Source: Acidimicrobiia bacterium
GTDB taxonomy: Bacteria; Actinomycetota; Acidimicrobiia; Acidimicrobiales; JAHEJN01
Length of the DNA: 35,405 bases
Direction: 5' to 3'
NCBI GenBank assembly: GCA_963854565.1
Contig: CAWKZT010000002.1
Location: 1 to 35,405 of the forward strand
Position numbers and translations under genes: made by a program. The notes under the pieces were generated by a model. The model ran no database searches. It was given only the letters and a program-made list of their open reading frames with translations, and was not told the DNA's origin. Positions within the stretch are counted from its first letter, which is position 1. Each line of letters begins with the position of its first letter. This document shows, one piece after another, positions 646 through 26,649 of this stretch.

Positions 646-2064
646 GTGACTGACGCATCTGCTATGCCAACCACTATCGCCGAACTGCGGGCTTCGGGAT
701 GGGAGTCCGTGCCGGTACGCGACGAAGTGCGTCGGAATGCTCTTGTGCGCATGCGCGCCAGCGAACCACTATTTAAAGGTGTGCTTGGCTATGAGGACAC
801 GGTGGCTCCGCAGTTGGAGCTAGCGATTCTTGCTGGTCACGATGTGGTGTTTTTGGGCGAGCGGGGTCAAGCCAAGACCCGCATGATTCGTTCGCTAACG
901 GGCTTACTTGATGAGTGGATGCCGATCATCGCGGGTAGTGAGATAAACGACGATCCGTATAACCCCATTTCGGCCTATGCCAAGAACCTTGTGGCCGAAC
1001 ATGGCGAAGACACCAAGGTTTCGTGGGTGAATCGCGACGCCCGCTACGGAGAAAAGTTGGCTACACCTGATACTTCGATTGCCGATCTGATTGGCGAGGT
1101 TGATCCTATAAAGGTGGCCGAGGGCCGGTATCTTTCCGATGAATTGACCATTCATTACGGCATGGTGCCGCGTACTAATCGTGGCATCTTTGCGATCAAC
1201 GAGCTTCCTGATCTGGCCGAACGCATTCAGGTGGGTCTGCTTAATGTGCTCGAAGAACGCGACGTGCAGATTCGTGGCTTCAAGATTCGGCTGCCCATCG
1301 ACGTGATGCTCTTTGCCTCGGCTAACCCCGAGGATTACACCAACCGTGGGCGCATTATCACTCCGCTCAAGGATCGTTTTGGGGCGCAAATTCGCACGCA
1401 CTATCCGCTTGAGGTTGGCATCGAACAAGACATAGCTGAACAAGAGGCCCATGTGCTTGGCGCCGATGGTGTTGAGGTCAAGGTGCCCGATTTTATGGGC
1501 ACGATCATTGCGATGTTTAGCCAGATTGCTCGTCAAAGCGCGCATGTGAACCAGCGCTCGGGGGTGTCGGTGCGCCTGACAGTTGCCAATTACGAGACGT
1601 TGGCAGCCAGTGCATTGCATCGCGCTATTCGCACCGGTCAGTCGGTGGCCGTGCCTCGGGTGTGCGATCTGGACTCATTGGCTTCGTCCACGATGGGCAA
1701 GCTGGAAATCGAGTCGATGGACGAGGGGCGCGACGGCGAGATTGTCAAGATGCTCATCGACACCGCGGTGCTCACTGTGTTTCGTGATGCGGTCGATCCG
1801 GCGGACTACACCGCATTGGTTAGTGCGTTCGACGAAGACCTGGTTGTCGATGCGGGTGACGATGTCAGCCCTGATGCGTACGTGGCCCTCGTTAACAAGG
1901 TGCCCGAGTTGGTCGCCTGTCTCAAGTGGATCGGTATCACTTCTACCGATGCGCCCGGCGAAGTAGCCAGCGGCGTCGAGTTCATCCTCGAAGGCCTACA
2001 TTTGGCCAAGAAGCTCAACAAGGCCAGCCAAGGCAAGAAGTCCGTTTACCAGTCCAAGGGCTAG
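646..2064 (+). CDS. ChlI/MoxR-like AAA+ ATPase (Mg-chelatase subunit I-like)
   Basis: 472-aa ORF with a P-loop-like GERGQAKT, a Walker B-like GIFAINELPD, and MLFASANPEDY...GRIITPLKDRFG typical of ChlI-type AAA+ modules. GTG start at 646; an alternative ATG lies at 664. Confidence 0.8.
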   Translation: MTDASAMPTTIAELRASGWESVPVRDEVRRNALVRMRASEPLFKGVLGYEDTVAPQLELAILAGHDVVFLGERGQAKTRMIRSLTGLLDEWMPIIAGSEINDDPYNPISAYAKNLVAEHGEDTKVSWVNRDARYGEKLATPDTSIADLIGEVDPIKVAEGRYLSDELTIHYGMVPRTNRGIFAINELPDLAERIQVGLLNVLEERDVQIRGFKIRLPIDVMLFASANPEDYTNRGRIITPLKDRFGAQIRTHYPLEVGIEQDIAEQEAHVLGADGVEVKVPDFMGTIIAMFSQIARQSAHVNQRSGVSVRLTVANYETLAASALHRAIRTGQSVAVPRVCDLDSLASSTMGKLEIESMDEGRDGEIVKMLIDTAVLTVFRDAVDPADYTALVSAFDEDLVVDAGDDVSPDAYVALVNKVPELVACLKWIGITSTDAPGEVASGVEFILEGLHLAKKLNKASQGKKSVYQSKG

Positions 2065-3254
2065 CCAGTGATGCGGCGGTTGAGTCTTTCGGCGCTGGGT
2101 TTGGCGTTGCGGTCTCGGCCGATGAGGCCGCGTTGGGTGGTGAAGCCGCGGGTGCCTTCGTAGCCGTCGATGCCGGTGTCATAGAAGTAGCCGACTAGAG
2201 GTACGCCGTCATCGACCGCGTTATCGATTTCCCTCAGTGACTGGTTAAGGAGTTCGTCGCGCCAGTCGTCGTCGTTGGTTGTCACACCGTTGCCGGTGAT
2301 GAGGAGTTTCTTGCCGGGTAGTTCGCTGGCGAGGCGTCGACATGCCACGCCGAGTTCTTCGGGCAGGGGAGCGAGGCCGGTGTCGTCTAGGTCGCCTTCG
2401 ACGGGGTAGGGGGTAAATCCGCCGCTGAGGTTGATGCCGAGTGGGTAGGAATAGCTGAAGCCGATGATGTCGTAGATGTCGACGTATTCGTGGGCTTGGC
2501 GCGGGGCGAGTTCGGGGACGACTAGTTCACCGTCGCGGATGGCACCGATCCAAGTGTCCCAGAAGAGGTGTTCCCACCAGCGGGCCTTGGGTCCAGCGCC
2601 GACGCCGACCGGAAAGATTGGGGGTAGGCCGAACGACGAGATTATTGGTGCTCGGCCTGATCCCAATATTGTCGCAGCCAAACGGTCGGCTTCCATGGCA
2701 TCGCCCACGGCGCCAAGTGCTTGTTCGAGGTCTTTGCGGCCGGGTGGGCGTGAGCCAAGCAGGTAGCCGCGGATAGCCCAACCAATGGGGTCGTCGACAC
2801 CGATCCATCCAGCCACGAGGCCGTCGAAGGCTTCGGCGCAGTGATCGACGTGGCGGGTCCACATTTGGTTGCGAGCGTTGTCGTCGCGGAACCCGCCCAT
2901 GTCGATGTGGAACCAACCGGGCAGTGTCTGTGATTGCAGGGTGACGATGGGTTGGAGTCCAACATGGCGCGCCGCGGCTAGGACGTCGCGGTAGCGATTG
3001 AATTCGTCGCGGTCGATCTTGCCTGGCTCTGGTTCGAGCCGAGACCATTCCAACTCGATGTTGATGTGGGTTAGGCCGAGAGCCGCAAGTTGGCCAAGGT
3101 CATCGCGAAATTCGGTGCCGAACCCGCTGCCTTCGTCGGATCGCGGGGCTTTGCCGTCGCGTTCCCACGCCGACCAATCAGCCGAAGGATGTACACCTTC
3201 GGAGCGAAGCGATGAGGAGGTAACGCCCCACCAGAAATTGTCATCGTCAGCCAT
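2061..3254 (-). CDS. Glycoside hydrolase family 1-like protein, apparently catalytically inactive
   Basis: 397-aa ORF with GH1 blocks FWWGVTSSSLRSEG, ELEWSRLEPEPG, GYLLGSRPPG and VPLVGYFY. The NEP acid/base motif reads DDP (res 154-156) and the ITENG nucleophile motif reads ITGNG (res 319-323). Confidence 0.75.
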   Translation of the reverse strand: MADDDNFWWGVTSSSLRSEGVHPSADWSAWERDGKAPRSDEGSGFGTEFRDDLGQLAALGLTHINIELEWSRLEPEPGKIDRDEFNRYRDVLAAARHVGLQPIVTLQSQTLPGWFHIDMGGFRDDNARNQMWTRHVDHCAEAFDGLVAGWIGVDDPIGWAIRGYLLGSRPPGRKDLEQALGAVGDAMEADRLAATILGSGRAPIISSFGLPPIFPVGVGAGPKARWWEHLFWDTWIGAIRDGELVVPELAPRQAHEYVDIYDIIGFSYSYPLGINLSGGFTPYPVEGDLDDTGLAPLPEELGVACRRLASELPGKKLLITGNGVTTNDDDWRDELLNQSLREIDNAVDDGVPLVGYFYDTGIDGYEGTRGFTTQRGLIGRDRNAKPSAERLNRRITG

Positions 3255-3605: not shown

Positions 3606-4112
3606 GTGACGTGGTTTTCTGCACGAAACATCTCGATGTCGACCGTCCCTGTTGGGCCAGACGAGATTTGGCGAATTCTCACCGACCCATCAGCGCTGGC
3701 CGGCTTGACGCCGCTGGTTCGATCGATTGAAGCGACAGGGTCGCAGTGGCGCTGGAAGCTCAACGGGATCGACGGGCTGGGAGTGAGCGTCGAAGCTGTC
3801 TTCACCGAGCGCATGGAGTTCACAGAAAAGCAGCAGATCATTTTCTCGCACGATCCGCCAGAAGGTGAACGCGAGCGCGCTGCGGTGGAGGGAGTCTACG
3901 ACCTGAAGCCGGCTGGCGAGAGCGCCACGGATCTGCAAGTCGACCTTGAACTCTTCGTCGACCTTCCACTGCCCCGTTTGTCGAGATACGCCGTCGAGCC
4001 CCTGATTCTCTCGACGATGCGTTTGACCGGGCAGCGATTTGCATCGAACTTGTACGAATATCTGGGACTTGATCCCTCCACAGCCACCATCACTGAAGTC
4101 AGACCGCCGTGA
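3606..4112 (+). CDS. SRPBCC (START/polyketide cyclase-dehydrase-like) family protein
   Basis: 168-aa ORF whose N-terminus ...VPVGPDEIWRILTDPSALAGLTPLV... is typical of SRPBCC ligand-binding proteins. GTG start at 3606; an alternative ATG lies at 3636. Confidence 0.65.
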   Translation: MTWFSARNISMSTVPVGPDEIWRILTDPSALAGLTPLVRSIEATGSQWRWKLNGIDGLGVSVEAVFTERMEFTEKQQIIFSHDPPEGERERAAVEGVYDLKPAGESATDLQVDLELFVDLPLPRLSRYAVEPLILSTMRLTGQRFASNLYEYLGLDPSTATITEVRPP

Positions 4113-4180: not shown

Positions 4181-4570
4181 GTGAAGAAGCTCTGGATCCA
4201 TCGTGACATCGAGGCCCCAGGAGAAACCCTTTGGGATCTTTTGACCGACCCTGAACAGTGGCCGAGTTGGGGAACCACAGTGCGTAGCGTCGAAATGAAA
4301 GGCGAACGGATCGAACTGGGCTCCACCGGAACCGTTTCATCGGTTGCTGGGCTGGATCTCAACTTCATTGTCACCGAGTTCGACCCTGGCGTGCGCTGGG
4401 CTTGGAAGGTCGCCGGTATACCAGCAACCGATCACACCGTTGAACGCGTCGAGGACGGCCGGTGCAGAGTCGGGTTTGGTGTTCCGTGGGCGGCGGCTCC
4501 GTATCTGAGCTTGTGTCAGTTGGCGTTGCGTCGACTCGATCGAATCGCTACACAGGAAAGGGCCATGTAA
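4181..4570 (+). CDS. SRPBCC family protein (second copy)
   Basis: 129-aa ORF with IEAPGETLWDLLTDPEQWPSWG typical of the SRPBCC/polyketide_cyc2 family. Its stop TAA overlaps the next ATG (TAATG). Confidence 0.65.
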   Translation: MKKLWIHRDIEAPGETLWDLLTDPEQWPSWGTTVRSVEMKGERIELGSTGTVSSVAGLDLNFIVTEFDPGVRWAWKVAGIPATDHTVERVEDGRCRVGFGVPWAAAPYLSLCQLALRRLDRIATQERAM

Positions 4571-6036
4571 TGAAGGTCGCAGTGATCGGCTCGACGGGTT
4601 ACGTCGGGGGCCGTCTGATACCCGAACTGCTCGCAGCTGGACACGATGTCCGCTGTGTCGCCCGTACCCCAGCCCGACTTATTGGGGTCGACTGGTGGTC
4701 CGAAGTTGAAGTCGTAGCCGCCGATGTATTGGACCAAGACTCGCTCGACGGAGCACTCCACGATATTGACGCTATCTACTACCTGGTGCACGCCATGGGG
4801 CACGCCGGCGATTTCGAAGAGGCCGACCGAATAGGCGCAGAAAACACCCGGATCGCGTCGGAAAAGGCAGGAGTTTCAAGGATTGTCTACCTCGGTGGTT
4901 TGGGAGAGGAAGACCCTGACCGACTCTCCAGCCATCTCGCAAGTAGGCACGAGGTCGGCGAGGTACTCGCTTCAGGAGCGGTGCCCGTTACCGAACTCCG
5001 TGCCGCTGTCATTATCGGCTCTGGTAGTGCCTCATTCGAGATGCTCCGCCACCTCGCTGAAGTGCTCCCCGCGATGATCTGCCCGCGCTGGGTGACGGCG
5101 ACCAAATGTCAACCCATCGCGATCACTGATGTCCTTCATTACCTCGTGGCGGTCCTCGACACGCCAGGTACCACGGGGGAGATCTTCGAGATCGGCGGTC
5201 CCGATGTGTTGACCTACCGCGACATGATGGACCGCTACGCGGCACTTGCCGGCCTGCGACGACGACTCATCATCCCCGTACCGCTCTTGACCCCACGACT
5301 CTCATCCCACTGGGTCAATCTCGTCACCCCGCTGCCTTACGGGCTGGCCCGCCCCCTCGTCGATAGCCTGATCAATGATGTTGTCGTTAGCCCTGAACGC
5401 GACATCCGGCGCATGGTCGACCACGCACCCTTGACACTGGACCGAGCTATCGAACGAGCTCTCGCTGTTGTCGGTGATCTCAAGATCAAGACCAGTTGGA
5501 TGGACAGCGCACCCACGAGCACCCCCGCTTCCCCGATGCCGCAGGATCCCGATTGGGCGGGTGGCACGATCTACGAAAACACCCAAGAGGTCAACACGAC
5601 CGCAAGCCCAGCGGCACTGTTTGCAAGTATCTCGGGTGTTGGTGGCGAGCGCGGGTGGTACGCCGCCAATATTTTGTGGACTTTACGTGGCTGGCTCGAC
5701 AAACTCATCGGTGGTGTCGGCATGCGACGTGGTCGTCGACATCCAGACGAGTTGCGTGTCGGTGATGCTCTCGATTTCTTCCGAGTCGAAGCGTACGAAC
5801 CGTCTTCGTTGCTGCGACTGCGGGCCGAAATGAAGGTGCCTGGCGGTGCTTGGGTCGAATGGCGGGTCATCTCCGAAGATGACGGGCAAACCCGGCTGCG
5901 GCAGCTTGCGCGGTTCACACCACGCGGCGTATCAGGCCGGCTGTACTGGTGGGTTCTTCTGCCCATTCATAAGGTGATCTGGAAACAGTTGGCCGAGCGC
6001 CTGGTGGCTAACGCCGAAAAGCCGGGAGCTGACTAG
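4570..6036 (+). CDS. NAD(P)-binding SDR fused to a DUF2867-like C-terminal domain (YbjT-like)
   Basis: The Rossmann start MKVAVIGSTGYVGGRL sits at the ATG at 4570, which overlaps the upstream stop by 1 nt. The C-terminal ~170 aa (GWYAANILWTLRGWLDKLIGGVGMRRGR...) resemble DUF2867. The longer ORF from 4462 overlaps the previous gene and is unlikely. Confidence 0.75.
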   Translation: MKVAVIGSTGYVGGRLIPELLAAGHDVRCVARTPARLIGVDWWSEVEVVAADVLDQDSLDGALHDIDAIYYLVHAMGHAGDFEEADRIGAENTRIASEKAGVSRIVYLGGLGEEDPDRLSSHLASRHEVGEVLASGAVPVTELRAAVIIGSGSASFEMLRHLAEVLPAMICPRWVTATKCQPIAITDVLHYLVAVLDTPGTTGEIFEIGGPDVLTYRDMMDRYAALAGLRRRLIIPVPLLTPRLSSHWVNLVTPLPYGLARPLVDSLINDVVVSPERDIRRMVDHAPLTLDRAIERALAVVGDLKIKTSWMDSAPTSTPASPMPQDPDWAGGTIYENTQEVNTTASPAALFASISGVGGERGWYAANILWTLRGWLDKLIGGVGMRRGRRHPDELRVGDALDFFRVEAYEPSSLLRLRAEMKVPGGAWVEWRVISEDDGQTRLRQLARFTPRGVSGRLYWWVLLPIHKVIWKQLAERLVANAEKPGAD

Positions 6037-6152
6037 CGGGGACTTGCGGAATATGACCTTTGGCCATAACGCCAGTGGAGTCGGTTGATCACCATTTAGT
6101 TATCTCCAGCGCTGAGACGACCGCGACCGTGTCGAAGCTTCCCCTGCTGATC

Positions 6153-6239
6153 ATGGCTGCGGTGATAGGACTTGCTGTGCTCGTGACCTTCTCACTGGCA
6201 GCACATTTGGATGCGTTCGGAACTAGCGTGACGAGATGA
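6153..6239 (+). CDS. Candidate mini membrane ORF (28 aa from the ATG; up to 54 aa from GTG 6075) overlapping the heliorhodopsin start
   Basis: The frame is open from 6057. The translation ...KLPLLIMAAVIGLAVLVTFSLAAHLDAFGTSVTR contains one ~22-residue hydrophobic segment. Its stop TGA (6237-6239) overlaps the heliorhodopsin ATG (6236) as ATGA. No clear SD. It is too short for the ORF track. Confidence 0.3.
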   Translation: MAAVIGLAVLVTFSLAAHLDAFGTSVTR

Positions 6240-6994
6240 ATTTAGAGATCGGTAATCTTCGCAAACTGAACCTGTTCGCCGGTTGCTTGCATCTTGTTTC
6301 TTTCATCGCAATCCTGCTGCTGTCCAATAGCGCGTCGCTTCCGGTGGTGGCGACCTACCTGACCGAGGCCCCCGGTACGGGCAACTTCTCCGATCCGGTG
6401 AACTTGTTCGACTTGAATATCAGCTACATGGTTGCTGGCTTCATGGGGCTTTCGGCGTTCTTTCACTTCTTTGTGATCTCACCGCCGATCTTCCCGAAGT
6501 ATGCCGAGGGTCTGGGCGAGCACATCAACAAGTACCGGTGGATCGAGTACTCGTTGTCGTCTTCGATCATGATTGTCATCATCTTGCAGTTGAACGGGAC
6601 CGCCGATTACATAGCTCTCCTCGCCATCTTCGGTGTGAACGTCTGCATGATCTTGTTCGGTTGGTTGCAGGAGAGGTACACCACGCCCGGCGACGGCGAC
6701 ATGCTCCCGTTCTGGTTTGGTTGCTTCGCTGGAGTGATCCCTTGGATTGCCACGGCCATCAATGTCATCTCGCCCAAGGGCCCGTCAGGGGCCAGCGCCC
6801 CCGGGTTCGTGTACGGGATCGTGATTTCACTCTTCATCCTTTTCAACAGCTTCGCCATTGTCCAGTGGAAGCAATACCGGGCGAAGGGCAAATGGGCCGA
6901 TTATCTCTATGGTGAGCGCCGGTACATCGTGCTTAGCTTCGTGGCAAAGTCGCTGCTTGCTTGGCAGGTCTTCGCGGGAGCGCTGGCCACCTAA
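6236..6994 (+). CDS. Heliorhodopsin (7-TM retinal-binding protein, inverted topology family)
   Basis: The 252-aa ORF is collinear with HeR-48C12 as I recall it. Shared blocks are LSAFFHFFV, RWIEYSLSSSIMIV, LLAIFGVNVCMILFGWLQERY, LPFWFGCFAGVIPW, PGFVYGIVISLFILFNSFAIVQ and GERRYIVLSFVAKSLLAWQVF. The Schiff-base Lys equivalent is K238 (6947-6949), the counter-ion Glu is E104, and the conserved His are H19 and H77. Confidence 0.93.
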   Translation: MNLEIGNLRKLNLFAGCLHLVSFIAILLLSNSASLPVVATYLTEAPGTGNFSDPVNLFDLNISYMVAGFMGLSAFFHFFVISPPIFPKYAEGLGEHINKYRWIEYSLSSSIMIVIILQLNGTADYIALLAIFGVNVCMILFGWLQERYTTPGDGDMLPFWFGCFAGVIPWIATAINVISPKGPSGASAPGFVYGIVISLFILFNSFAIVQWKQYRAKGKWADYLYGERRYIVLSFVAKSLLAWQVFAGALAT

Positions 6995-7037
6995 AACATC
7001 GACCTCCAAGTCGAAGTCCACCAATCGAATTGGGTCT

Positions 7038-7493
7038 CTACTCGCCAGGTATGGGCCCGGGATTTGGTTGCCGGAACAGTCCGTCCGGGATCGGGGCATC
7101 GCAGCGCACCAAGGCGAGTTGCCAGGCCGGTGAAGCACCGAGTGCCCATCGAAGTGCACTCGTCGCATTCTTGCCGATCCCGCCTGCTCGTCTCCCTGGC
7201 TCGACCTCAAGTTGCATGCAGATGTCGGGGGGAATCGTGGTCAGAGCGGCATCGAAAAGTAGTCGGTAGCCGATTTTGACTGGTGGTTTCAGAGGAGGGT
7301 TACGGAGAAAGGAGATGGCGCTTGCCTGTGCTTTGGTGGCGACCCGATCGGGATGATTGGTGATCCAGTCCTTGAGTTCTTGGGCCGTTTCGGGCCGGTT
7401 GGCCCGTGTGAGAAAAGGCCCGTGATCGCCGACACAACGGGATCCCGCAGTTTGCGACCCAACTTGTTCAGGTTTGACACTGTGGTCCCTCAT
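7038..7493 (-). pseudogene. Possible C-terminal fragment of an MpaB/DUF2236-family oxygenase
   Basis: The 151-aa ORF contains PETAQELKDWI...FLRNPPLKPPVKIGYRLLFDAALTTIPPDI, which resembles only the C-terminal third of DUF2236 proteins. Only 98 nt separate it from the upstream gene, so there is no room for the N-terminal catalytic part. No SD precedes the ATG. Confidence 0.3.
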
Positions 7494-7591
7494 GGCAGGC
7501 GATCGTTGCTTGTAAGAAGTGTACGTTCAGGTCGATTCGCATCGTTGTTTGGGGCCACCGGTCCGTTCGTCAGTCGAAGGAGCACAAGGCG

Positions 7592-8149
7592 TCACCATCC
7601 TGAGGTACCGGGTTCACCCTTGAATGGACCGACAACCTCGCCGGTAATCCATCCTCCGTAGAAGCCACCGGCTTGGGGTCGCACTAGTTCGCCATCCACG
7701 CGGCAATGGATCCGGCCCGGATAGAAGGAGATCCACCCGGCGTAGTCAGCGAACTCGGGGTATGGATCGGGGTAGCGCCAGCCCACAGGTTCGGTGGTCC
7801 CCGCTACCGCTACATATTCGGCCGCACCTTTCCATTCGCAGTGCGATGTTCCGTGCACACTCACTAACCGCCCAGCGGGCACCGATTCGGGTGGTAGGTA
7901 GAAGGCAGGCGGATGTGAGGTCTCCAGCACTCGTGCGGATCGGTTCGTTGACGCCACGAGGCCGTGAGCGTCAGAAACTTCGACCGCTCGACTATCGGGC
8001 ACTACTGCGGGCGGTCTTGGGTAGTCCCATACTGACTCCTGGTCGGGGCCCGGGTCTTGAGCGAACGTCGGGCGTTGTTCGCCCCGGTGGGTCCAGCTAT
8101 CGCGCGCATGTTGAAGCCATGCTGGTTCGTTTTTGGTCACGATCTCCAC
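7592..8149 (-). CDS. DUF427 domain-containing protein
   Basis: 185-aa ORF with VWDYPRPP...SHPPAFYLPPE...TSHCEWKGAAEY...ISFYPGR, characteristic of DUF427. It lies 75 nt downstream of the photolyase on the same strand. Confidence 0.8.
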   Translation of the reverse strand: MEIVTKNEPAWLQHARDSWTHRGEQRPTFAQDPGPDQESVWDYPRPPAVVPDSRAVEVSDAHGLVASTNRSARVLETSHPPAFYLPPESVPAGRLVSVHGTSHCEWKGAAEYVAVAGTTEPVGWRYPDPYPEFADYAGWISFYPGRIHCRVDGELVRPQAGGFYGGWITGEVVGPFKGEPGTSGW

Positions 8150-8224
8150 GCTAGGTGGAAATAGTGGGAGGTGGGTGTCACAAACGGGAGCGCTCTGACT
8201 TTGGCTTTCGACCGTCGTATGCGG

Positions 8225-9592
8225 TTAGGTGAGGGCTTGTTTGTAGGTCTGGAGGGCACGGGTTCTGGCGTTGGCATGGTCGACCATCGGCACTGGGTAG
8301 GTGTCTCCTAGAACCACTCCGGCTGTCGCCAGCATGCTGGGATCGGTGCTGTGAGGATGGTGGATGGCTGAAGGGGGAAGGGCGGACAGTTCTGGTACCC
8401 AGCGCCGGACGTAGTCGCCCTGGGGGTCGAATTTCTGCGCCTGAGTGGTGGGGTTGAACACGCGGAAGTAAGGGGCGGCGTCGGGCCCGGTTCCGGCGAC
8501 CCACTGCCAGTTGCCCGCGTTCTGGGCCATATCGGCGTCGACGAGATGATGGCGAAAGAATCGTTCCCCTTGGCGCCAGTCGATGAGCAGATCTTTGACC
8601 AGAAAGCTGGCGCAGATCATCCGTACCCGGTTGTGCATCCACCCGGTCGTGGTCAACTGACGCATCCCGGCGTCGACGATTGGATAGCCAGTCTGACCGG
8701 TGCACCAGCGTTGGAAACCGTCTGGATCGTCGCGCCACGCGATGTTGTCGTATTGCGGCTTGAGAGCCACGTCGGGGAGATCGGGACGCAGGGTGAGGGT
8801 GTGGTTCCACCAGTCTCGCCAGGCCAGTTGGCGAACGAACGCGGCCCGGCCCGGCGTTTGAGTGCCGACGATGTCAACGAGGGTGCGGGCGGCGAGGGTG
8901 CCGAACTTTAGGTCGGCTGAGAGTTCGGAGGTACCGGGCATAGCGGGCAGGTCGCGAGTATCGGGGTAGTCGTCGACGTGATCGAGCCAACTGGTGACCC
9001 GCTCCCACGCTCCGGATTCTCCGGGTGACTGGTAGATCGGTCCTTCGGTGCGGGGGAGCGGTTCGCTCGATATGGCAACGGGTCGGCCTGGACCCGGTGA
9101 CGGCCACGCGGCAAATGGGGCCGCGGTCCAAGCCTTGTAGAAGGGTGTGAAGACCTGGGACAGGGTGCCCTTCTTGGTGAGCACGGCACCGGGTTGATGC
9201 ACTGTGACACCATTGAAGCCATGCGTCGGAATCGTCAGGGCATGGGCTACGGCCTCGTCCCTTTCGACGGAGAAGGGGGTGGCGTCGACGTTGAAGTAGA
9301 CCGCCGAGGCTTCACAGTCTGCGACCAGGGTCGGGACGGCCGATGTTGCGGGGCCACAACGAACAACGAGACCCCCGCCGAGACCTTTCAGTTGCTGGTC
9401 AAGTGCATCGAGATGTGCGAGGAGTTGATCGCGACGGATTTGTCCTGCCGCGTCTATCAGTCTGGGCTCGAGGACGAACAAGGCAATGACCTCGTTATGA
9501 GCCGACGTTGCGGCTGCCCACGCGGGGTTGTCGTCGAGGCGAAGGTCTCGCCGGAACCACACCACGCCCGGTCTTGGATTGGAACCGTCCAC
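8225..9592 (-). CDS. phr: Deoxyribodipyrimidine photo-lyase (class I CPD photolyase type)
   Basis: 455-aa ORF with VWFRRDLRLDDNPAW at the N-terminus and the FAD-binding blocks TGYPIVDAGMRQL, GWMHNRVRMICASFLVKDLLIDWR, DADMAQNAGNWQWVAGTGPDAAPYFRVFNP and KFDPQGDYVRRWVPEL. GTG start; no obvious SD. Confidence 0.92.
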   Translation of the reverse strand: MDGSNPRPGVVWFRRDLRLDDNPAWAAATSAHNEVIALFVLEPRLIDAAGQIRRDQLLAHLDALDQQLKGLGGGLVVRCGPATSAVPTLVADCEASAVYFNVDATPFSVERDEAVAHALTIPTHGFNGVTVHQPGAVLTKKGTLSQVFTPFYKAWTAAPFAAWPSPGPGRPVAISSEPLPRTEGPIYQSPGESGAWERVTSWLDHVDDYPDTRDLPAMPGTSELSADLKFGTLAARTLVDIVGTQTPGRAAFVRQLAWRDWWNHTLTLRPDLPDVALKPQYDNIAWRDDPDGFQRWCTGQTGYPIVDAGMRQLTTTGWMHNRVRMICASFLVKDLLIDWRQGERFFRHHLVDADMAQNAGNWQWVAGTGPDAAPYFRVFNPTTQAQKFDPQGDYVRRWVPELSALPPSAIHHPHSTDPSMLATAGVVLGDTYPVPMVDHANARTRALQTYKQALT

Positions 9593-9866
9593 GGACCCAG
9601 TATGAAGTGCGCACGGACAAATAACGTCTTTGGGCCAGATGTATTTGGATGGGACCGGGATAGAACTTGGCTATGGCCCGTTAGCTCGCTCACATCTGCG
9701 ATCCGAAACCAGCGACTGCGACCCCACCGCGCTCCCGGAAACAAGTCCGGACAGATGCGAGGGGTCATGACCATCATCTACATAGACGAGGGCATGCAGA
9801 TTAAGCGGGCCGAGAATACGTTTCAGCAGAACGATCATGCATCTTTTTGTCCACAGACTTTGGCCG

Positions 9867-9946: not shown

Positions 9947-10582
9947 TTAGGGGAAGAGAATTTCGTAGGAACAGGTGTGCGCCCCGGCGGTCTTGTGGGT
10001 CACCCTGTCGACTTTTGCATCGGGCATGAGGTCGCGAATGAACTCGAGTTCGGTGGTGCACGCCTGTGTGTAGAGGCTGGCAACGGCCCATATGGGGCAA
10101 CTGTGAAGGTTGATCCGATACTGGTTGTGGTCCGGCTTCTCGCAGTCAGCGAGGAACCCCTGTTCATCGAGCAACTTGGTTAGGACGCTGACACGTTGGG
10201 CGGTCGACTTGCCGATCAGTTGGTCTTGCGCTTTCTCGACGAGGCGGAGCCGGCGCCGCTCGAATATTCGGTTCACGAGTTCGGGGTCTTCTTCTTCGAT
10301 GTGTTCGAGGAGTTCGACGGAGAGGCTGCTGTCGGTCGTGACAAAGAGTAGTTCGGCGCGGTCGGTGGTTTGGTAGCGGTCGGCCGGGCGTCCGGGTTGG
10401 CCTCGGTCTTGCGTAGCGGTGATGAGGTCGGCGGATCGCAGGGCCCTCAGGTGTTGGCGAACTGCGCTGGAAGAGATTTCGAGGGTGTCGGCGAGTTCTT
10501 CAGCCGTTGCGCTGCCACTGCGTTTTAGTGCAGTGAGCACCCGGCGCTGGGTCGGTGAAGGTGCAGCACTGGTGGTGAGCAT
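9947..10582 (-). CDS. sufR: SufR-like ArsR/DeoR-type winged-helix regulator with a C-terminal Cys cluster
   Basis: The start is chosen at MLTTSAAPSPTQRRVLTALKRSGSATAEELADTL...AVRQHLRAL (wHTH). The C-terminus carries C-x14-C-x12-C...C (CEKPD..HSCPIW..QACTT..HTCSY). It is divergent from a suf operon. The longer ORF to 10699 would swallow the promoter region. Confidence 0.7.
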   Translation of the reverse strand: MLTTSAAPSPTQRRVLTALKRSGSATAEELADTLEISSSAVRQHLRALRSADLITATQDRGQPGRPADRYQTTDRAELLFVTTDSSLSVELLEHIEEEDPELVNRIFERRRLRLVEKAQDQLIGKSTAQRVSVLTKLLDEQGFLADCEKPDHNQYRINLHSCPIWAVASLYTQACTTELEFIRDLMPDAKVDRVTHKTAGAHTCSYEILFP

Positions 10583-10603
10583 TTGTCGATCGTAGCATGT
10601 CCA

Positions 10604-10663
10604 GATAGTTCGATAGTTTCGCAACTTGGAACTACCAAAACGGTGGTATATTAAACGCCACCG
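10604..10663 (+). promoter_or_regulatory. Candidate suf promoter/operator region
   Basis: There is a direct repeat GATAGTTcGATAGTT (10604-10618). A -35-like TTGGAA (10626-10631) and a -10-like TATATT (10647-10652) are present. The -10 sits in the loop of the inverted repeat CGGTGG-N11-CCACCG (10641-10663). Confidence 0.3.
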
Positions 10664-10717
10664 AAGCACCAATAATGCAAGACCACAGGCTGTGACCACA
10701 GCAGGGAGAAGATCACC

Positions 10718-10984
10718 ATGAAAGTCTGGATCGACCAGGATCTCTGCACCGGAGATGGCCTGTGTGAAGAGATCGCCCCCGATGTGTTCTTCGGAAGGGA
10801 CGACGGGCTCTTCTACGTGAAGGAGTCTGAGGAAAACTTTGGGGAAGAGAAACTGTTCGATGGCACAGCCAACCCGGCGGCCGCCGATGGAATGGCTCGG
10901 ATACCTGACGGTGGCCTAGAAGGGGTCATCGAGGCGGCAGAGGAATGCCCCGGCGAGTGCATCTTCATCGAAGTCGACGCGTAA
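10718..10984 (+). CDS. Small ferredoxin (single-cluster, C-x2-D-x2-C ... CP type)
   Basis: 88-aa ORF with MKVWIDQDLCTGDGLCEEIAPDVF and C-terminal ECPGECIFIE. SD GGGAGAAG lies upstream. Confidence 0.8.
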   Translation: MKVWIDQDLCTGDGLCEEIAPDVFFGRDDGLFYVKESEENFGEEKLFDGTANPAAADGMARIPDGGLEGVIEAAEECPGECIFIEVDA

Positions 10985-24247: not shown

Positions 24248-24631
24248 ATGACACACTGGCATATGGCCAAACTTTCTTGGGTTGATCAAGCTGCGTTTTG
24301 GTGCGCGGACTTGCCGCACGCTGAGTTGGACTACCCGTTCGGGCCCCAGACTGGTGTATATAAAGTCGCCGGCAAGATGTTTGCGCTGTTCAACGCCGAT
24401 GCCGATGTGCCCTACCTCAATCTCAAGGTCGATCCCCCTGATGGTGAGGCGTTGCGCCTAGCCCATCCCTATATCCGTGGCGGCTATCACATGAACAAGA
24501 AGCACTGGATAACGGTGGACTTTACCGACGAAATGGAGCTCGGTTTACTGGACGGCCTCATCGAAGATTCCTACTCACTTGTCGTCTCCAAGCTCCCGAA
24601 GAAAACCCGTCTCTTGTTGGACTTCGTTTAA
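24248..24631 (+). CDS. MmcQ/YjbR-family protein
   Basis: 127-aa ORF with YPFGPQTGVYKVAGKMFALF...NLKVDP......L......I..GYHMNKKHWITV, typical of YjbR. Its stop overlaps the next ATG (TAATG). Confidence 0.75.
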   Translation: MTHWHMAKLSWVDQAAFWCADLPHAELDYPFGPQTGVYKVAGKMFALFNADADVPYLNLKVDPPDGEALRLAHPYIRGGYHMNKKHWITVDFTDEMELGLLDGLIEDSYSLVVSKLPKKTRLLLDFV

Positions 24632-26649
24632 TGGGTATTTTTCGTCGACATCGCCAGGAACGAAAGGTCAGCTACTCCAAGTGGGACGGAACCCAATCCG
24701 GATTTGATGTGTCCGCCGCTCAACTCATGGAGGCTATGGGCGATGACCTGATGTATCACGGCGATCTCAACAACGCCTTGCGCCACATGATGCAAGACGG
24801 CTTCGACATCGACGGCGAACGGGTGCAGGGCCTTCGTGACCTCATGGAGCGTTTACAGGAACGACGCCAAGAACTCCTCGATAGTGGCGACCTGGGTGGC
24901 GTCTACGACGAAATCGCCGGCGACCTGCGGAAGGTTGTCGAAATGGAGAGGTCGACGCTCGACGCTCAAAGTAATGATGCCAAGGCCAGTGGCGATGATC
25001 GCCGATCAGAACTCACCGATGCGGCGACACAAGAGAAACAGTTCCACCTCGACATGCTGCCCGATGACCTTGCTGGGCGAGTCAAGAGTTTGCAGCAATA
25101 CGACTTCGCTAGCCAAGAGGCCCAGGAACGCTTTGATGAGTTAGTTAAGACGCTCCGCGAACAACTGATGCAACAGTTCGTGGACCAGATGGCCGATGGT
25201 GTCGACGCGATGTCTGAAGCCGACATGGCTCGGGTCAAAGACATGATGGCAGCGCTCAACGAGATGCTCGAACAACGAGCCGGAGGAGAGGAACCCGATT
25301 TCGAAGGATTTATGGAACGCTTCGGCGATTTCTTCCCCGAAAACCCTCAGACGCTCGATGAACTGCTCGAAATCATGGCCCAACGCATGGCTGCCATGCA
25401 GGCGATGCTTAATTCGATGACGCCTGAACAACGTCAGCAGTTGGCCGACCTCAACGCTCAACTGATGCAAGACATGGATCTTCAATGGCAGGCCCAGCAG
25501 TTGGGGCAAAATCTACAGCAGGCTTTCCCCGATGCCGGGTGGGAGAGATCACATGATTTCGGTGGGTTCGATCCGCTCAATATGAGCCAAGCCCTTGATG
25601 CCATTGATCAGTTGGGTGATCTCGATCAGCTCGACAACATGCTGCAGAGCGCAACAAACCCCGGAGCCTTGGCCGAGATCGATATCGACCGGGCCCGTGA
25701 TTTGCTGGGCGACGATGTTGCCCGCAGCCTCGAACAAATGGCACAGATGGCCAAGGCACTCGAAGAAGCTGGTCTGATCGAAAATCGTGAAGGCAAACTC
25801 GAAATGACCCCCCGTGCCATTCGCCAACTAGGCAAGCAGGCGCTGAACGAGGTGTTTAAAAACCTCGATGGCAATCGGTTTGGTGGCCATCAGATGTCGC
25901 GAATCGGTGTGGGTCACGAACGAGACTATTCAACCAAGCCCTATGAGTTCGGTGATCCGTTCAACCTTCACATCGAAAAAACCATCCAGAATGCGATTCG
26001 TCGGACAGGTGGGGGCACGCCAGTGAATCTCACGCCCGACGACTTCGAAATTGAGCGCACCGAAATGGTTACCGATGCCAGCACCATCTTGATGCTCGAT
26101 CTTTCGTTGTCGATGCCAATGCGCGAAAATTTCTTACCGGCCAAGAAGGTGGCCATGGCCTTGCACTCGCTCATGACCAGCCAATTTCCCCGTGACTATT
26201 TCGGCGTGGTCTCGTTTAGTGAAGTAGCGCGGGTACTTAAGCCCGAAGAACTCCCTGAAGTGTCGTGGGACTACGTCTATGGCACCAATATGCAACATGC
26301 CTTCCGTCTGTCGCGTCAGTTGTTGTCGAAGCAGCGTGGCACCAAACAGATCATCATGATCACCGACGGTGAGCCAACCGCACATATCTTGCCGAACGGA
26401 TCTCCCTACTTCGCCTACCCGCCTTCTCGCGAGACCGTTGAGCTGACTTTGAACGAGGTTGCGGCCTGCACCCGGGATCGAATCCGGATCAATACGTTCA
26501 TGCTCGACGCGACACCGCACCTCACCTCGTTCATCGAAAAGATCACCGAGATGAACGGTGGACGCGCTTTTTTCACTACAAATCAAAATATTGGCGAATA
26601 TTTATTGGTGGATTTTGTGGAGCATCGACGCGCGATGGTGACGCGCTAA
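24631..26649 (+). CDS. VWA domain-containing protein with a long acidic/Gln-rich helical N-terminal region
   Basis: 672-aa ORF. The C-terminal VWA fold carries a MIDAS-like ILMLDLSLSM, then IIMITDGEPTAH and INTFMLD. The N-terminal layout resembles the uncharacterised VWA partners of ChlI-like ATPases. Confidence 0.85.
   Translation: MGIFRRHRQERKVSYSKWDGTQSGFDVSAAQLMEAMGDDLMYHGDLNNALRHMMQDGFDIDGERVQGLRDLMERLQERRQELLDSGDLGGVYDEIAGDLRKVVEMERSTLDAQSNDAKASGDDRRSELTDAATQEKQFHLDMLPDDLAGRVKSLQQYDFASQEAQERFDELVKTLREQLMQQFVDQMADGVDAMSEADMARVKDMMAALNEMLEQRAGGEEPDFEGFMERFGDFFPENPQTLDELLEIMAQRMAAMQAMLNSMTPEQRQQLADLNAQLMQDMDLQWQAQQLGQNLQQAFPDAGWERSHDFGGFDPLNMSQALDAIDQLGDLDQLDNMLQSATNPGALAEIDIDRARDLLGDDVARSLEQMAQMAKALEEAGLIENREGKLEMTPRAIRQLGKQALNEVFKNLDGNRFGGHQMSRIGVGHERDYSTKPYEFGDPFNLHIEKTIQNAIRRTGGGTPVNLTPDDFEIERTEMVTDASTILMLDLSLSMPMRENFLPAKKVAMALHSLMTSQFPRDYFGVVSFSEVARVLKPEELPEVSWDYVYGTNMQHAFRLSRQLLSKQRGTKQIIMITDGEPTAHILPNGSPYFAYPPSRETVELTLNEVAACTRDRIRINTFMLDATPHLTSFIEKITEMNGGRAFFTTNQNIGEYLLVDFVEHRRAMVTR

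Follow-up and report, generated by a model that had tools for sequence, protein, structure and literature searches.

Does the open reading frame (ORF) at positions 6236 to 6994 of a 35,405-nucleotide stretch of Acidimicrobiia DNA (contig CAWKZT010000002.1, positions 1 to 35,405; hereafter the window) encode a working heliorhodopsin (HeR), and which proteins, if any, would it act upon? A preliminary description, made from the nucleotide sequence, had called the ORF a heliorhodopsin with an intact chromophore pocket, collinear with HeR-48C12 (hereafter 48C12), and had regarded both the physiological role of the family and the local source of the chromophore as open. We compared the gene, its predicted protein and its neighbours with characterised heliorhodopsins and with related loci. 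Its sequence identifies the ORF as a genuine heliorhodopsin gene, intact and of the 48C12-like subfamily. The protein is very probably functional, and would act as a slow-cycling regulatory photosensor that uses its cytoplasmic loops to control a partner protein.

An intact heliorhodopsin with the 48C12 pocket

The ORF begins with ATG, continues for 252 codons and stops at TAA, and its translation includes the motifs VAKSLLAWQ (K238) and WIEYSLSSS (E104). Four key codons were read straight off the nucleotide sequence and assigned to transmembrane (TM) helices 1, 2, 3 and 7 by their counterparts in 48C12:

6236..6994, forward strand: heliorhodopsin coding sequence (PF18761, NF038020; 58% identity to 48C12; model TM-score of 0.82–0.83 to 6SU3)
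6290..6292, forward strand: CAT codon of H19, equivalent to His23 of 48C12 in TM1 and the Schiff-base cavity; invariant in 28 clade members
6464..6466, forward strand: CAC codon of H77, equivalent to His80 of 48C12 in TM2, by alignment to 48C12 and by the 28-member clade alignment
6545..6547, forward strand: GAG codon of E104, equivalent to the counter-ion Glu107 of 48C12 in TM3, by the same alignments
6947..6949, forward strand: AAG codon of K238, equivalent to the Schiff-base Lys241 of 48C12 in TM7; invariant in 28 relatives

The protein matches the Pfam family PF18761 (Heliorhodopsin) across the entire profile (positions 1–242 of 242; E = 3.4e-92; 308.6 bits compared to a cut-off of 26.7) and the NCBIfam equivalog NF038020, 'heliorhodopsin HeR' (313.4 bits compared to a cut-off of 100). 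Its best sequence matches in the PDB are the three depositions of 48C12 (6SU3/6SU4, 6UH3 and 9LJJ; E of about 1e-91), followed by a Thermoplasmatales HeR (E = 2e-47) and the eukaryotic Cv06 HeR (E = 1e-33). These scores place the family match far above chance, and nothing was found that speaks against the assignment. Global alignment to 48C12, the founding heliorhodopsin from a freshwater actinobacterial fosmid (PDB 6SU3, 6SU4, 6UH3 and 9LJJ), yielded 143 identical residues at 246 aligned positions (58%). The two proteins are collinear over residues 4–250, interrupted by one indel only, of 1 residue, in the AB loop.

We then compared the residues that form the pocket, the Schiff-base surroundings and the Schiff-base cavity of 48C12, as listed by Kovalev et al. 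2020 (PMC7049168). In 48C12 numbering, the list comprises N16, H23, F72, S76, H80, Y92, N101, R104, W105, E107, Y108, S111, S112, S113, M115, N138, M141, I142, E149, W173, F206, Q213, Q216, Y226, E230, S237 and K241. The window HeR has the identical residue at each of the 27 positions, and all pocket and cavity residues checked in the 28-member clade alignment are invariant. E104 (E107 in 48C12) is the single glutamate counter-ion, while S234 (S237) replaces the second carboxylate of type-1 rhodopsins (Asp212 of bacteriorhodopsin) and S73 and S108 (S76 and S111) are the stabilising serines. The two histidines and the polar Schiff-base cavity are likewise identical to those of 48C12 (H19, H77, N12, Y89, N98, R101, Y105, E146, Y223 and E227). 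Among the positions examined, the sole difference is the replacement of Q26, which we take to lie near the pocket of 48C12, by S22, a serine that is invariant in the Acidimicrobiia clade.

In sum, the window HeR shares with 48C12 the Schiff-base lysine, the counter-ion glutamate, both histidines, the serine at the Asp212 position, Asn138, Pro172 and Gln213, as well as the 27 pocket and cavity residues, six fenestration residues, a length of about 250 residues and the overall fold (model TM-score of 0.82). It differs from 48C12 in carrying S22 for Q26, in its Acidimicrobiia host lineage and in its gene neighbourhood and, unlike 48C12, it is known from sequence alone.

The preliminary description was accurate on all of these points. 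The 252-residue ORF and the quoted motifs and residues are present exactly as it gave them, and its collinearity with 48C12 was confirmed. The family-model comparison that it proposed as a check returned highly significant matches (E = 3.4e-92 for PF18761 and 313 bits for NF038020), K238 and E104 fall exactly in the columns of Lys241 and Glu107, and H19 and H77 in those of His23 and His80. Its phrase 'intact chromophore pocket' was, if anything, an understatement.

Predicted membrane orientation and fold

Hydropathy analysis of the protein identified seven hydrophobic segments. Assuming a cytoplasmic N-terminus, the predicted cytoplasmic segments contain 8 lysine and arginine residues, compared to 1 outside. 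This charge distribution fits the predicted heliorhodopsin orientation, an inverted bundle of seven transmembrane helices with its N-terminus in the cytoplasm, which is the topology that the preliminary description had anticipated. The predicted cytoplasmic face includes a basic intracellular loop 1 (ICL1; K88, K99 and R101) and a basic intracellular loop 3 (ICL3; K212, R215, K217, K219, R228 and R229).

An AlphaFold2 model, built from a 28-sequence alignment, has seven helices and a beta-hairpin in the AB loop (strands 35–39 and 55–60). A Foldseek search with the model returned 48C12 with a TM-score of 0.81–0.83 (0.82–0.83 for 6SU3) and the HeR of a Thermoplasmatales archaeon, TaHeR (6IS6 and 7U55), with a TM-score of 0.75–0.77; type-1 rhodopsins followed far behind the heliorhodopsins (E > 0.06). 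TaHeR therefore shares the fold and the family of the window HeR (phmmer E = 2e-47; 41% identity), although its distance is far greater than that of 48C12 and its host is an archaeon.

A probable light sensor rather than a transporter

The mechanism that we propose takes its steps from characterised homologues, while its starting points, the sequence and the predicted fold, come directly from the window. The HeR would sit in the membrane with its N-terminus in the cytoplasm and would bind all-trans-retinal through K238, E104 being the only counter-ion. The holoprotein would absorb near 550 nm. Because the pocket residues are identical to those of 48C12, a retinal pigment of about 550 nm with a slow, second-scale photocycle and no transport activity is the likely outcome. 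48C12 absorbs at about 551 nm. The homologue OcHeR absorbs at 554 nm (PMC11109279).

A first alternative concerns transport. Proton transport by viral heliorhodopsins is reported (papers cited in PMC11109279; PMC12873467), and the window HeR could in principle be a light-driven or light-gated proton transporter of the same kind. The viral transporters, such as V2HeR3, belong to the same family (PF18761) and within it to subfamily 2, whose members lack the Asn138 analogue and Pro172, have histidines at 162 and 166 and in many cases a glutamate at 202 (PMC7049168). At those positions, the window HeR has N135, P169, F159, C163 and L199, as does the non-transporting 48C12. As the marks of subfamily 2 are absent, we infer that the window HeR would not transport ions, and we regard a transporter as extremely improbable.

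A second alternative concerns light capture. In the two-chromophore proposal (Kornilov et al. 2025), an exogenous xanthophyll docked at a lateral fenestration passes its energy to retinal, making the HeR a harvester with two antennas. The preprint (bioRxiv 10.1101/2025.11.27.691015) defines the fenestration motif by aromatic side chains at positions 162 and 206 and small ones at 166 and 210, together with Gly169 and Asn207. The window HeR has the equivalent residues (F159, C163, G166, F203, N204 and A207 for F162, C166, G169, F206, N207 and A210 of 48C12), and these are invariant in the HeR clade. According to the same preprint, however, the motif occurs in 91% of heliorhodopsins, so that its presence says nothing specific about the window gene, and the proposal itself rests on structures, sequence statistics and docking. 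We consider a two-chromophore harvester unlikely here; such an antenna would in any case be compatible with a sensor and would not exclude one.

Returning to the regulatory photosensor, the photocycle would be slow, and its long-lived state would alter the cytoplasmic face of the protein, including the basic ICL1 and ICL3. The altered face would in turn modulate the activity of a bound partner. Regulation of a partner through positively charged intracellular loops has been described for glutamine synthetase (PMC9529153), for a photolyase (PMC9769723) and for an ABC exporter (PMC11109279). Since these three function-tested heliorhodopsins bind their partners and up-regulate them in the light, and since the window HeR has similarly basic ICL1 and ICL3, a regulatory photosensor is the favoured reading. 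The preliminary description's view that the physiological role of heliorhodopsins is open is accordingly only partly up to date: partners have been shown for single heliorhodopsins, and viral ones are reported to transport protons.

The window does not reproduce the gene arrangements of these precedents. AbHeR, which acts with glutamine synthetase in Actinobacteria bacterium IMCC26103 (PMC9529153), resembles the window HeR in its basic intracellular loops; unlike the AbHeR operon group, the window has no glutamine synthetase or NAD+ synthetase gene detectable by Pfam scan. OcHeR, likewise actinobacterial, binds the ABC exporter OmrDE through basic loops and up-regulates it in the light (PMC11109279), whereas the window lacks such an exporter gene. 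Near the HeR gene, we found no Pfam match to glutamine synthetase, NAD+ synthetase or a heterodimeric multidrug-resistance ABC exporter, and the only ABC genes in the window, SufC and an OpuA-type importer, lie more than 5 kb away.

Genes flanking the heliorhodopsin

To the left of the HeR gene, the window carries an EAL-domain gene, a MoxR-like AAA gene, a reverse-strand GH1 gene, two SRPBCC genes and a gene for an SDR-DUF2867 fusion, followed by a 199-nucleotide gap. To its right lie, convergently on the reverse strand, a 151-residue ORF, a DUF427 gene and a photolyase gene, and then a SufR-like regulator and the suf operon. The features closest to the HeR gene are:

3606–4112 and 4181–4570, forward strand: two SRPBCC (Polyketide_cyc2) genes, by Pfam
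4570..6036, forward strand: 488-residue fusion, counted from the ATG at 4570, of an NmrA/atypical-SDR NAD(P)-binding domain with DUF2867 (Pfam matches NAD_binding_10, NmrA, Epimerase and DUF2867)
6037..6235, forward strand: 199-nucleotide region between the SDR-DUF2867 stop and the HeR start, the presumed HeR 5′ region
7047..7480, reverse strand: decayed MpaB/Lcp-family oxygenase gene, convergent with the HeR gene, located by tblastn with an intact homologue
7592..8149, reverse strand: DUF427 (PF04248) gene, by Pfam
8225..9592, reverse strand: DNA photolyase, class-I/E. coli-type-like (Pfam DNA_photolyase and FAD_binding_7)

The SDR-DUF2867 gene is the only co-directional neighbour of the HeR gene. 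Its start is overlapped by the second SRPBCC gene by 1 nucleotide, which gives the SRPBCC-SRPBCC-SDR-DUF2867 series the look of an operon, and it is called as a gene (8335–9801) in four independent assemblies of the same locus (L080–L083 in our numbering of loci). Its stop lies about 200 nucleotides upstream of the HeR start with no terminator-like site between them, making it a candidate partner or co-transcribed gene. Its spacing to the HeR gene, set beside the 'SDR-containing operon' group of PMC11109279, is nevertheless wider than the −20 to 30 bp typical of an operon.

A sigma-70 promoter scan of 5700–8300, which says little about promoters of the Actinomycetota kind, gave no match. In the 199-nucleotide leader, a riboswitch or other regulatory RNA was considered and rejected, as Rfam has no match to the leader or anywhere else in the window and the leader folds no better than shuffled sequences (z = +1.0). 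We also rejected a 59-residue ORF (6060–6239, forward strand) as a co-translated small membrane partner. It has a TTG start, one predicted transmembrane helix and a TGA stop that overlaps the HeR ATG (ATGA). No comparable ORF lies upstream of the HeR gene in 77 related loci, it has no Pfam or NCBIfam match, and it received no gene call in the four independent assemblies; it is probably spurious.

Downstream, the 151-residue ORF ('hyp151', 7038–7493) was considered as a novel HeR-adjacent protein and was rejected, as it proved to be an out-of-frame remnant of an MpaB-family oxygenase gene. The intact homologue, in a related locus (L048, 14616–15542, reverse strand), encodes a 308-residue MpaB/Lcp-family oxygenase (PF09995). 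By tblastn, its residues 1–28 match 7480–7397 in frame −2 and its residues 191–306 match 7394–7047 in frame −1; the window copy has thus lost codons 29–190 (162 codons) and is frameshifted. The same shortened gene call appears in the four independent assemblies, indicating that the decay is real in the population.

Comparison with related loci

We counted gene families within 6 kb of the HeR gene in 80 loci of its clade, of which 42 have at least 3 kb on both sides. The counts, which are raw and taken without a genome-wide background, are not enrichments:

Fatty-acid (FA) desaturase family: 16 of 80 loci, with weak, sub-threshold CrtR/CrtW-like NCBIfam matches
GH1: 12 of 80 loci, in most of them immediately upstream and co-directional
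SRPBCC: 11 of 80 loci, with general SRPBCC queries and the window included
Classical SDR: 10 of 80 loci
SDR-DUF2867: 4 of 80 loci
DUF2071: 3 of 80 loci
DUF427: 3 of 80 loci
MpaB: 2 of 80 loci
Photolyase type: 2 of 80 loci, the window (class I) and L001 (DPRP type)

When ORFs within 5 kb of the HeR gene were clustered, no family reached more than about 20% of the 80 loci.

The nearest syntenic relative, L048, is from an Acidimicrobiia metagenome-assembled genome (MAG) and has the SRPBCC-SRPBCC-SDR-DUF2867 block and the MpaB gene in common with the window, at 80–82% nucleotide identity. The slot occupied by the HeR gene in the window is empty in L048, where the SDR-DUF2867 and MpaB genes are adjacent. 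Homology ends after the SDR stop and resumes at about 7025, so that 988 nucleotides of the window (6037–7024, the leader and the HeR gene) stand in place of about 254 nucleotides of L048 (14349–14602). L048 has an HeR gene of its own (9956–10747; 72% nucleotide identity), located about 1 kb upstream of the SRPBCC-SDR block. Judged from these alignments, the HeR gene appears to have moved, or to have been replaced, as a single-gene unit, in what looks like a recent insertion or relocation. A search for mobile-element signatures at this indel revealed only chance-level repeats of 10–14 nucleotides. The relocation of a single HeR gene inside a conserved block cautions against naming partners by adjacency in one genome.

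Two kinds of neighbour nevertheless invite specific explanations. The first is the photolyase. In Trichococcus flocculiformis, TfHeR and the photolyase TfPHR form a pair (PMC9769723), and the window HeR could similarly be a light-dependent helper that binds the neighbouring enzyme and raises DNA repair in green light. The photolyase gene is 1.2 kb from the HeR stop, 'photolyase' is among the ten recurrent HeR neighbour groups of PMC11109279, and the closest relative (L001) has a photolyase of the DPRP type (FeS-BCP-like) 3.6 kb from its HeR gene. However, TfHeR shares one operon with a class II cyclobutane pyrimidine dimer photolyase, while the window enzyme is class-I-like (363 bits to NCBIfam NF007955, below the cut-off of 506, and 30 bits to the class II model TIGR00591). 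It is encoded on the other strand, and the MpaB pseudogene and the DUF427 gene lie in between, so the two genes do not form one operon. Relatives of the window HeR do not keep the association, with a photolyase-family gene within 6 kb in only 2 of the 80 loci, and photolyase is equally associated with proton-pump rhodopsins (Chazan et al., bioRxiv 10.1101/2021.02.16.431466). We find a photolyase helper very unlikely. A literature search identified no paper that ties DUF427 or DUF2867 to light or to photolyase.

The second kind comprises genes of the sort that handle hydrophobic ligands. Here, the HeR would work with the two SRPBCC proteins and the NmrA/SDR-DUF2867 protein in lipid, carotenoid or retinoid handling, for example in membrane-lipid remodelling or chromophore supply; relatives add FA-desaturase-like, MpaB oxygenase and classical SDR genes. 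The SDR-DUF2867 gene precedes the HeR gene on the same strand, 200 nucleotides away and with no predicted terminator between. In L048, the same SRPBCC-SRPBCC-SDR block has the HeR gene on its opposite flank, with the SDR-DUF2867 homologue 2.1 kb downstream of that gene, and in the distant loci L073 and L075 the homologue is convergent, 37 nucleotides downstream of the HeR gene. The most frequent families of this sort in the 80 loci are FA desaturases, SRPBCC and classical SDR (16, 11 and 10 loci). A role in lipid remodelling has been proposed from DegV and DUF2177 neighbours (Chazan et al., bioRxiv 10.1101/2021.02.16.431466), and 'SDR' is one of the HeR neighbour groups of PMC11109279. Yet each association occurs in a minority of loci, in counts that have no genome-wide background, gene order is shuffled among genomes, the MpaB-type oxygenase is a pseudogene in the window, and the idea is without biochemical precedent. 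We judge it quite unlikely.

For the regulatory photosensor, the SDR-DUF2867 protein and the nearby photolyase remain the local candidates for a partner, 'SDR family oxidoreductase' and 'photolyase' both figuring among the ten HeR neighbour groups that recur in PMC11109279. Several observations leave this specific mechanism with weaker support than the family assignment. The 80-locus clustering yielded no conserved operon partner, and neither candidate is conserved (2 of 80 loci for photolyase-type genes and 4 of 80 for SDR-DUF2867). The photolyase is encoded on the other strand, with two genes in between, and differs in class from the class II enzyme of the TfHeR study. The HeR gene appears to have arrived recently in its slot, so its adjacency to these genes may be accidental; together with the lack of conservation, this makes both candidates weak. 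Finally, the AlphaFold2 model is of moderate confidence (mean pLDDT of 70.9 and pTM of 0.66).

Other features of the related loci were recorded alongside these comparisons. Among the closest HeR relatives, L001 (4791–11403) and L004 (4944–7402) have their HeR genes amid DUF427, DUF2071, classical SDR, SRPBCC and MpaB genes, and L001 also has the DPRP-type photolyase; these are the same kinds of gene as in the window, in another order and orientation. The DUF427 gene adjoins the HeR gene divergently in the two closest relatives, L001 and L002.

The window lacks the FA-desaturase-family gene (about 330 residues, PF00487), whose product could desaturate lipids or modify carotenoids; its NCBIfam matches, to the beta-carotene hydroxylase CrtR and the ketolase CrtW, are weak and sub-threshold. 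It lies upstream of the HeR gene on the same strand, with gaps of 119–670 nucleotides, in six loci (L024, L025, L027, L028, L032 and L033) and downstream on the opposite strand in ten (L037, L038, L040, L041, L043, L044, L049, L053, L054 and L057).

A GH1 gene ends 23–72 nucleotides before the HeR gene, on the same strand, in eight Ilumatobacteraceae-type loci (L026, L038, L040, L041, L043, L047, L050 and L051). The homologous GH1 glycosidase of the window (2061–3254, reverse strand; about 34–43% identity) is located 3 kb from the HeR gene, on the opposite strand.

Chromophore supply

A heliorhodopsin requires retinal, and we searched the window for genes that could provide it. The 41 ORFs scanned against Pfam cover 90.5% of the window (the largest gap outside the scan is 638 nucleotides) and include no match to SQS_PSY, amino-oxidase/CrtI, lycopene cyclase, BCD/Blh, RPE65 or bacteriorhodopsin families. 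This agrees with the preliminary description, which had seen no carotenoid or retinal biosynthesis gene in the window. The absence that it pointed out holds, though it is not special to this locus, being a published general property of HeR loci. The gene blh is rare among HeR neighbours and in genomes whose only rhodopsin is an HeR, HeR and blh co-occur mainly in genomes that also carry other rhodopsins, and an unknown retinal pathway has been invoked (Chazan et al., bioRxiv 10.1101/2021.02.16.431466). Functional rhodopsins have also been described in an actinobacterium without known retinal genes (Nakajima et al. 2020, PMC7734400). For its retinal, the window HeR must draw on genes in other parts of the genome, on an unknown pathway or on the environment.

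One more speculative arrangement would connect the chromophore to the neighbouring genes. The HeR gene and the SRPBCC, SDR-DUF2867, classical SDR, CrtR/CrtW-like desaturase and MpaB/Lcp-type (isoprenoid-cleaving) oxygenase genes might form a loose module that makes, modifies or delivers the chromophore, providing retinal independently of blh, or that supplies a xanthophyll antenna. We hold this combination of module and supply to be highly improbable; if true, it would bear on how bacteria whose only rhodopsin is an HeR obtain retinal. Irrespective of it, the recurring and shuffled lipid- and carotenoid-type neighbours could guide an enrichment study of HeR partners and retinal supply.

Host, prevalence and minor observations

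The identical protein is encoded on at least 22 public contigs (JGI, ENA and NCBI assemblies), and the gene order of the window recurs at all four places shown for it (L080–L083). The identical protein and context in four independent assemblies indicate that the HeR locus is not an assembly artefact. A WhiB gene in the window, together with the closest loci, which are all Acidimicrobiia or Actinomycetota MAGs, points to a monoderm Acidimicrobiia (Actinomycetota) host.

A word-indexed search returned 7,323 proteins with E < 1e-20 among 8,000 scored candidates. The best 120 relatives are 75–89% identical to the window HeR and almost all are 252 residues long; several relatives already bear the name 'heliorhodopsin HeR', given by standard annotation pipelines, in Acidimicrobiales, Ilumatobacteraceae and Actinomycetota MAGs. 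In a collection of species-representative genomes, we found 79 HeR loci, nearly all from Acidimicrobiia, with 59–87% identity (best, 87%). The window HeR is therefore an ordinary member of the largest and well-described HeR subfamily. Its significance is small, as it adds one more uncharacterised member in a freshwater and marine Acidimicrobiia lineage already known to carry heliorhodopsins.

Some related Actinomycetota genomes have two HeR genes. In L064, they are 4 kb apart (6026–6705 and 10115–10752), and the MAG ZE-17mar17-69 has them on two separate contigs (L043 and L046; 78% and 75% identity to the window protein).

The window has no tRNA genes. It contains a gene for a 672-residue protein (24631–26649, forward strand) with a C-terminal VWA domain and a weak HemN_C match and, towards its other end, a separate MoxR-like AAA+ gene (646–2064, forward strand), both unrelated to the HeR gene. 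Among eleven genes compared, the HeR gene has the highest third-position GC content (0.78, compared to 0.60–0.76 in the others) and the lowest overall GC content (0.56), a pattern that may reflect membrane-protein composition combined with strong codon bias or a different origin.

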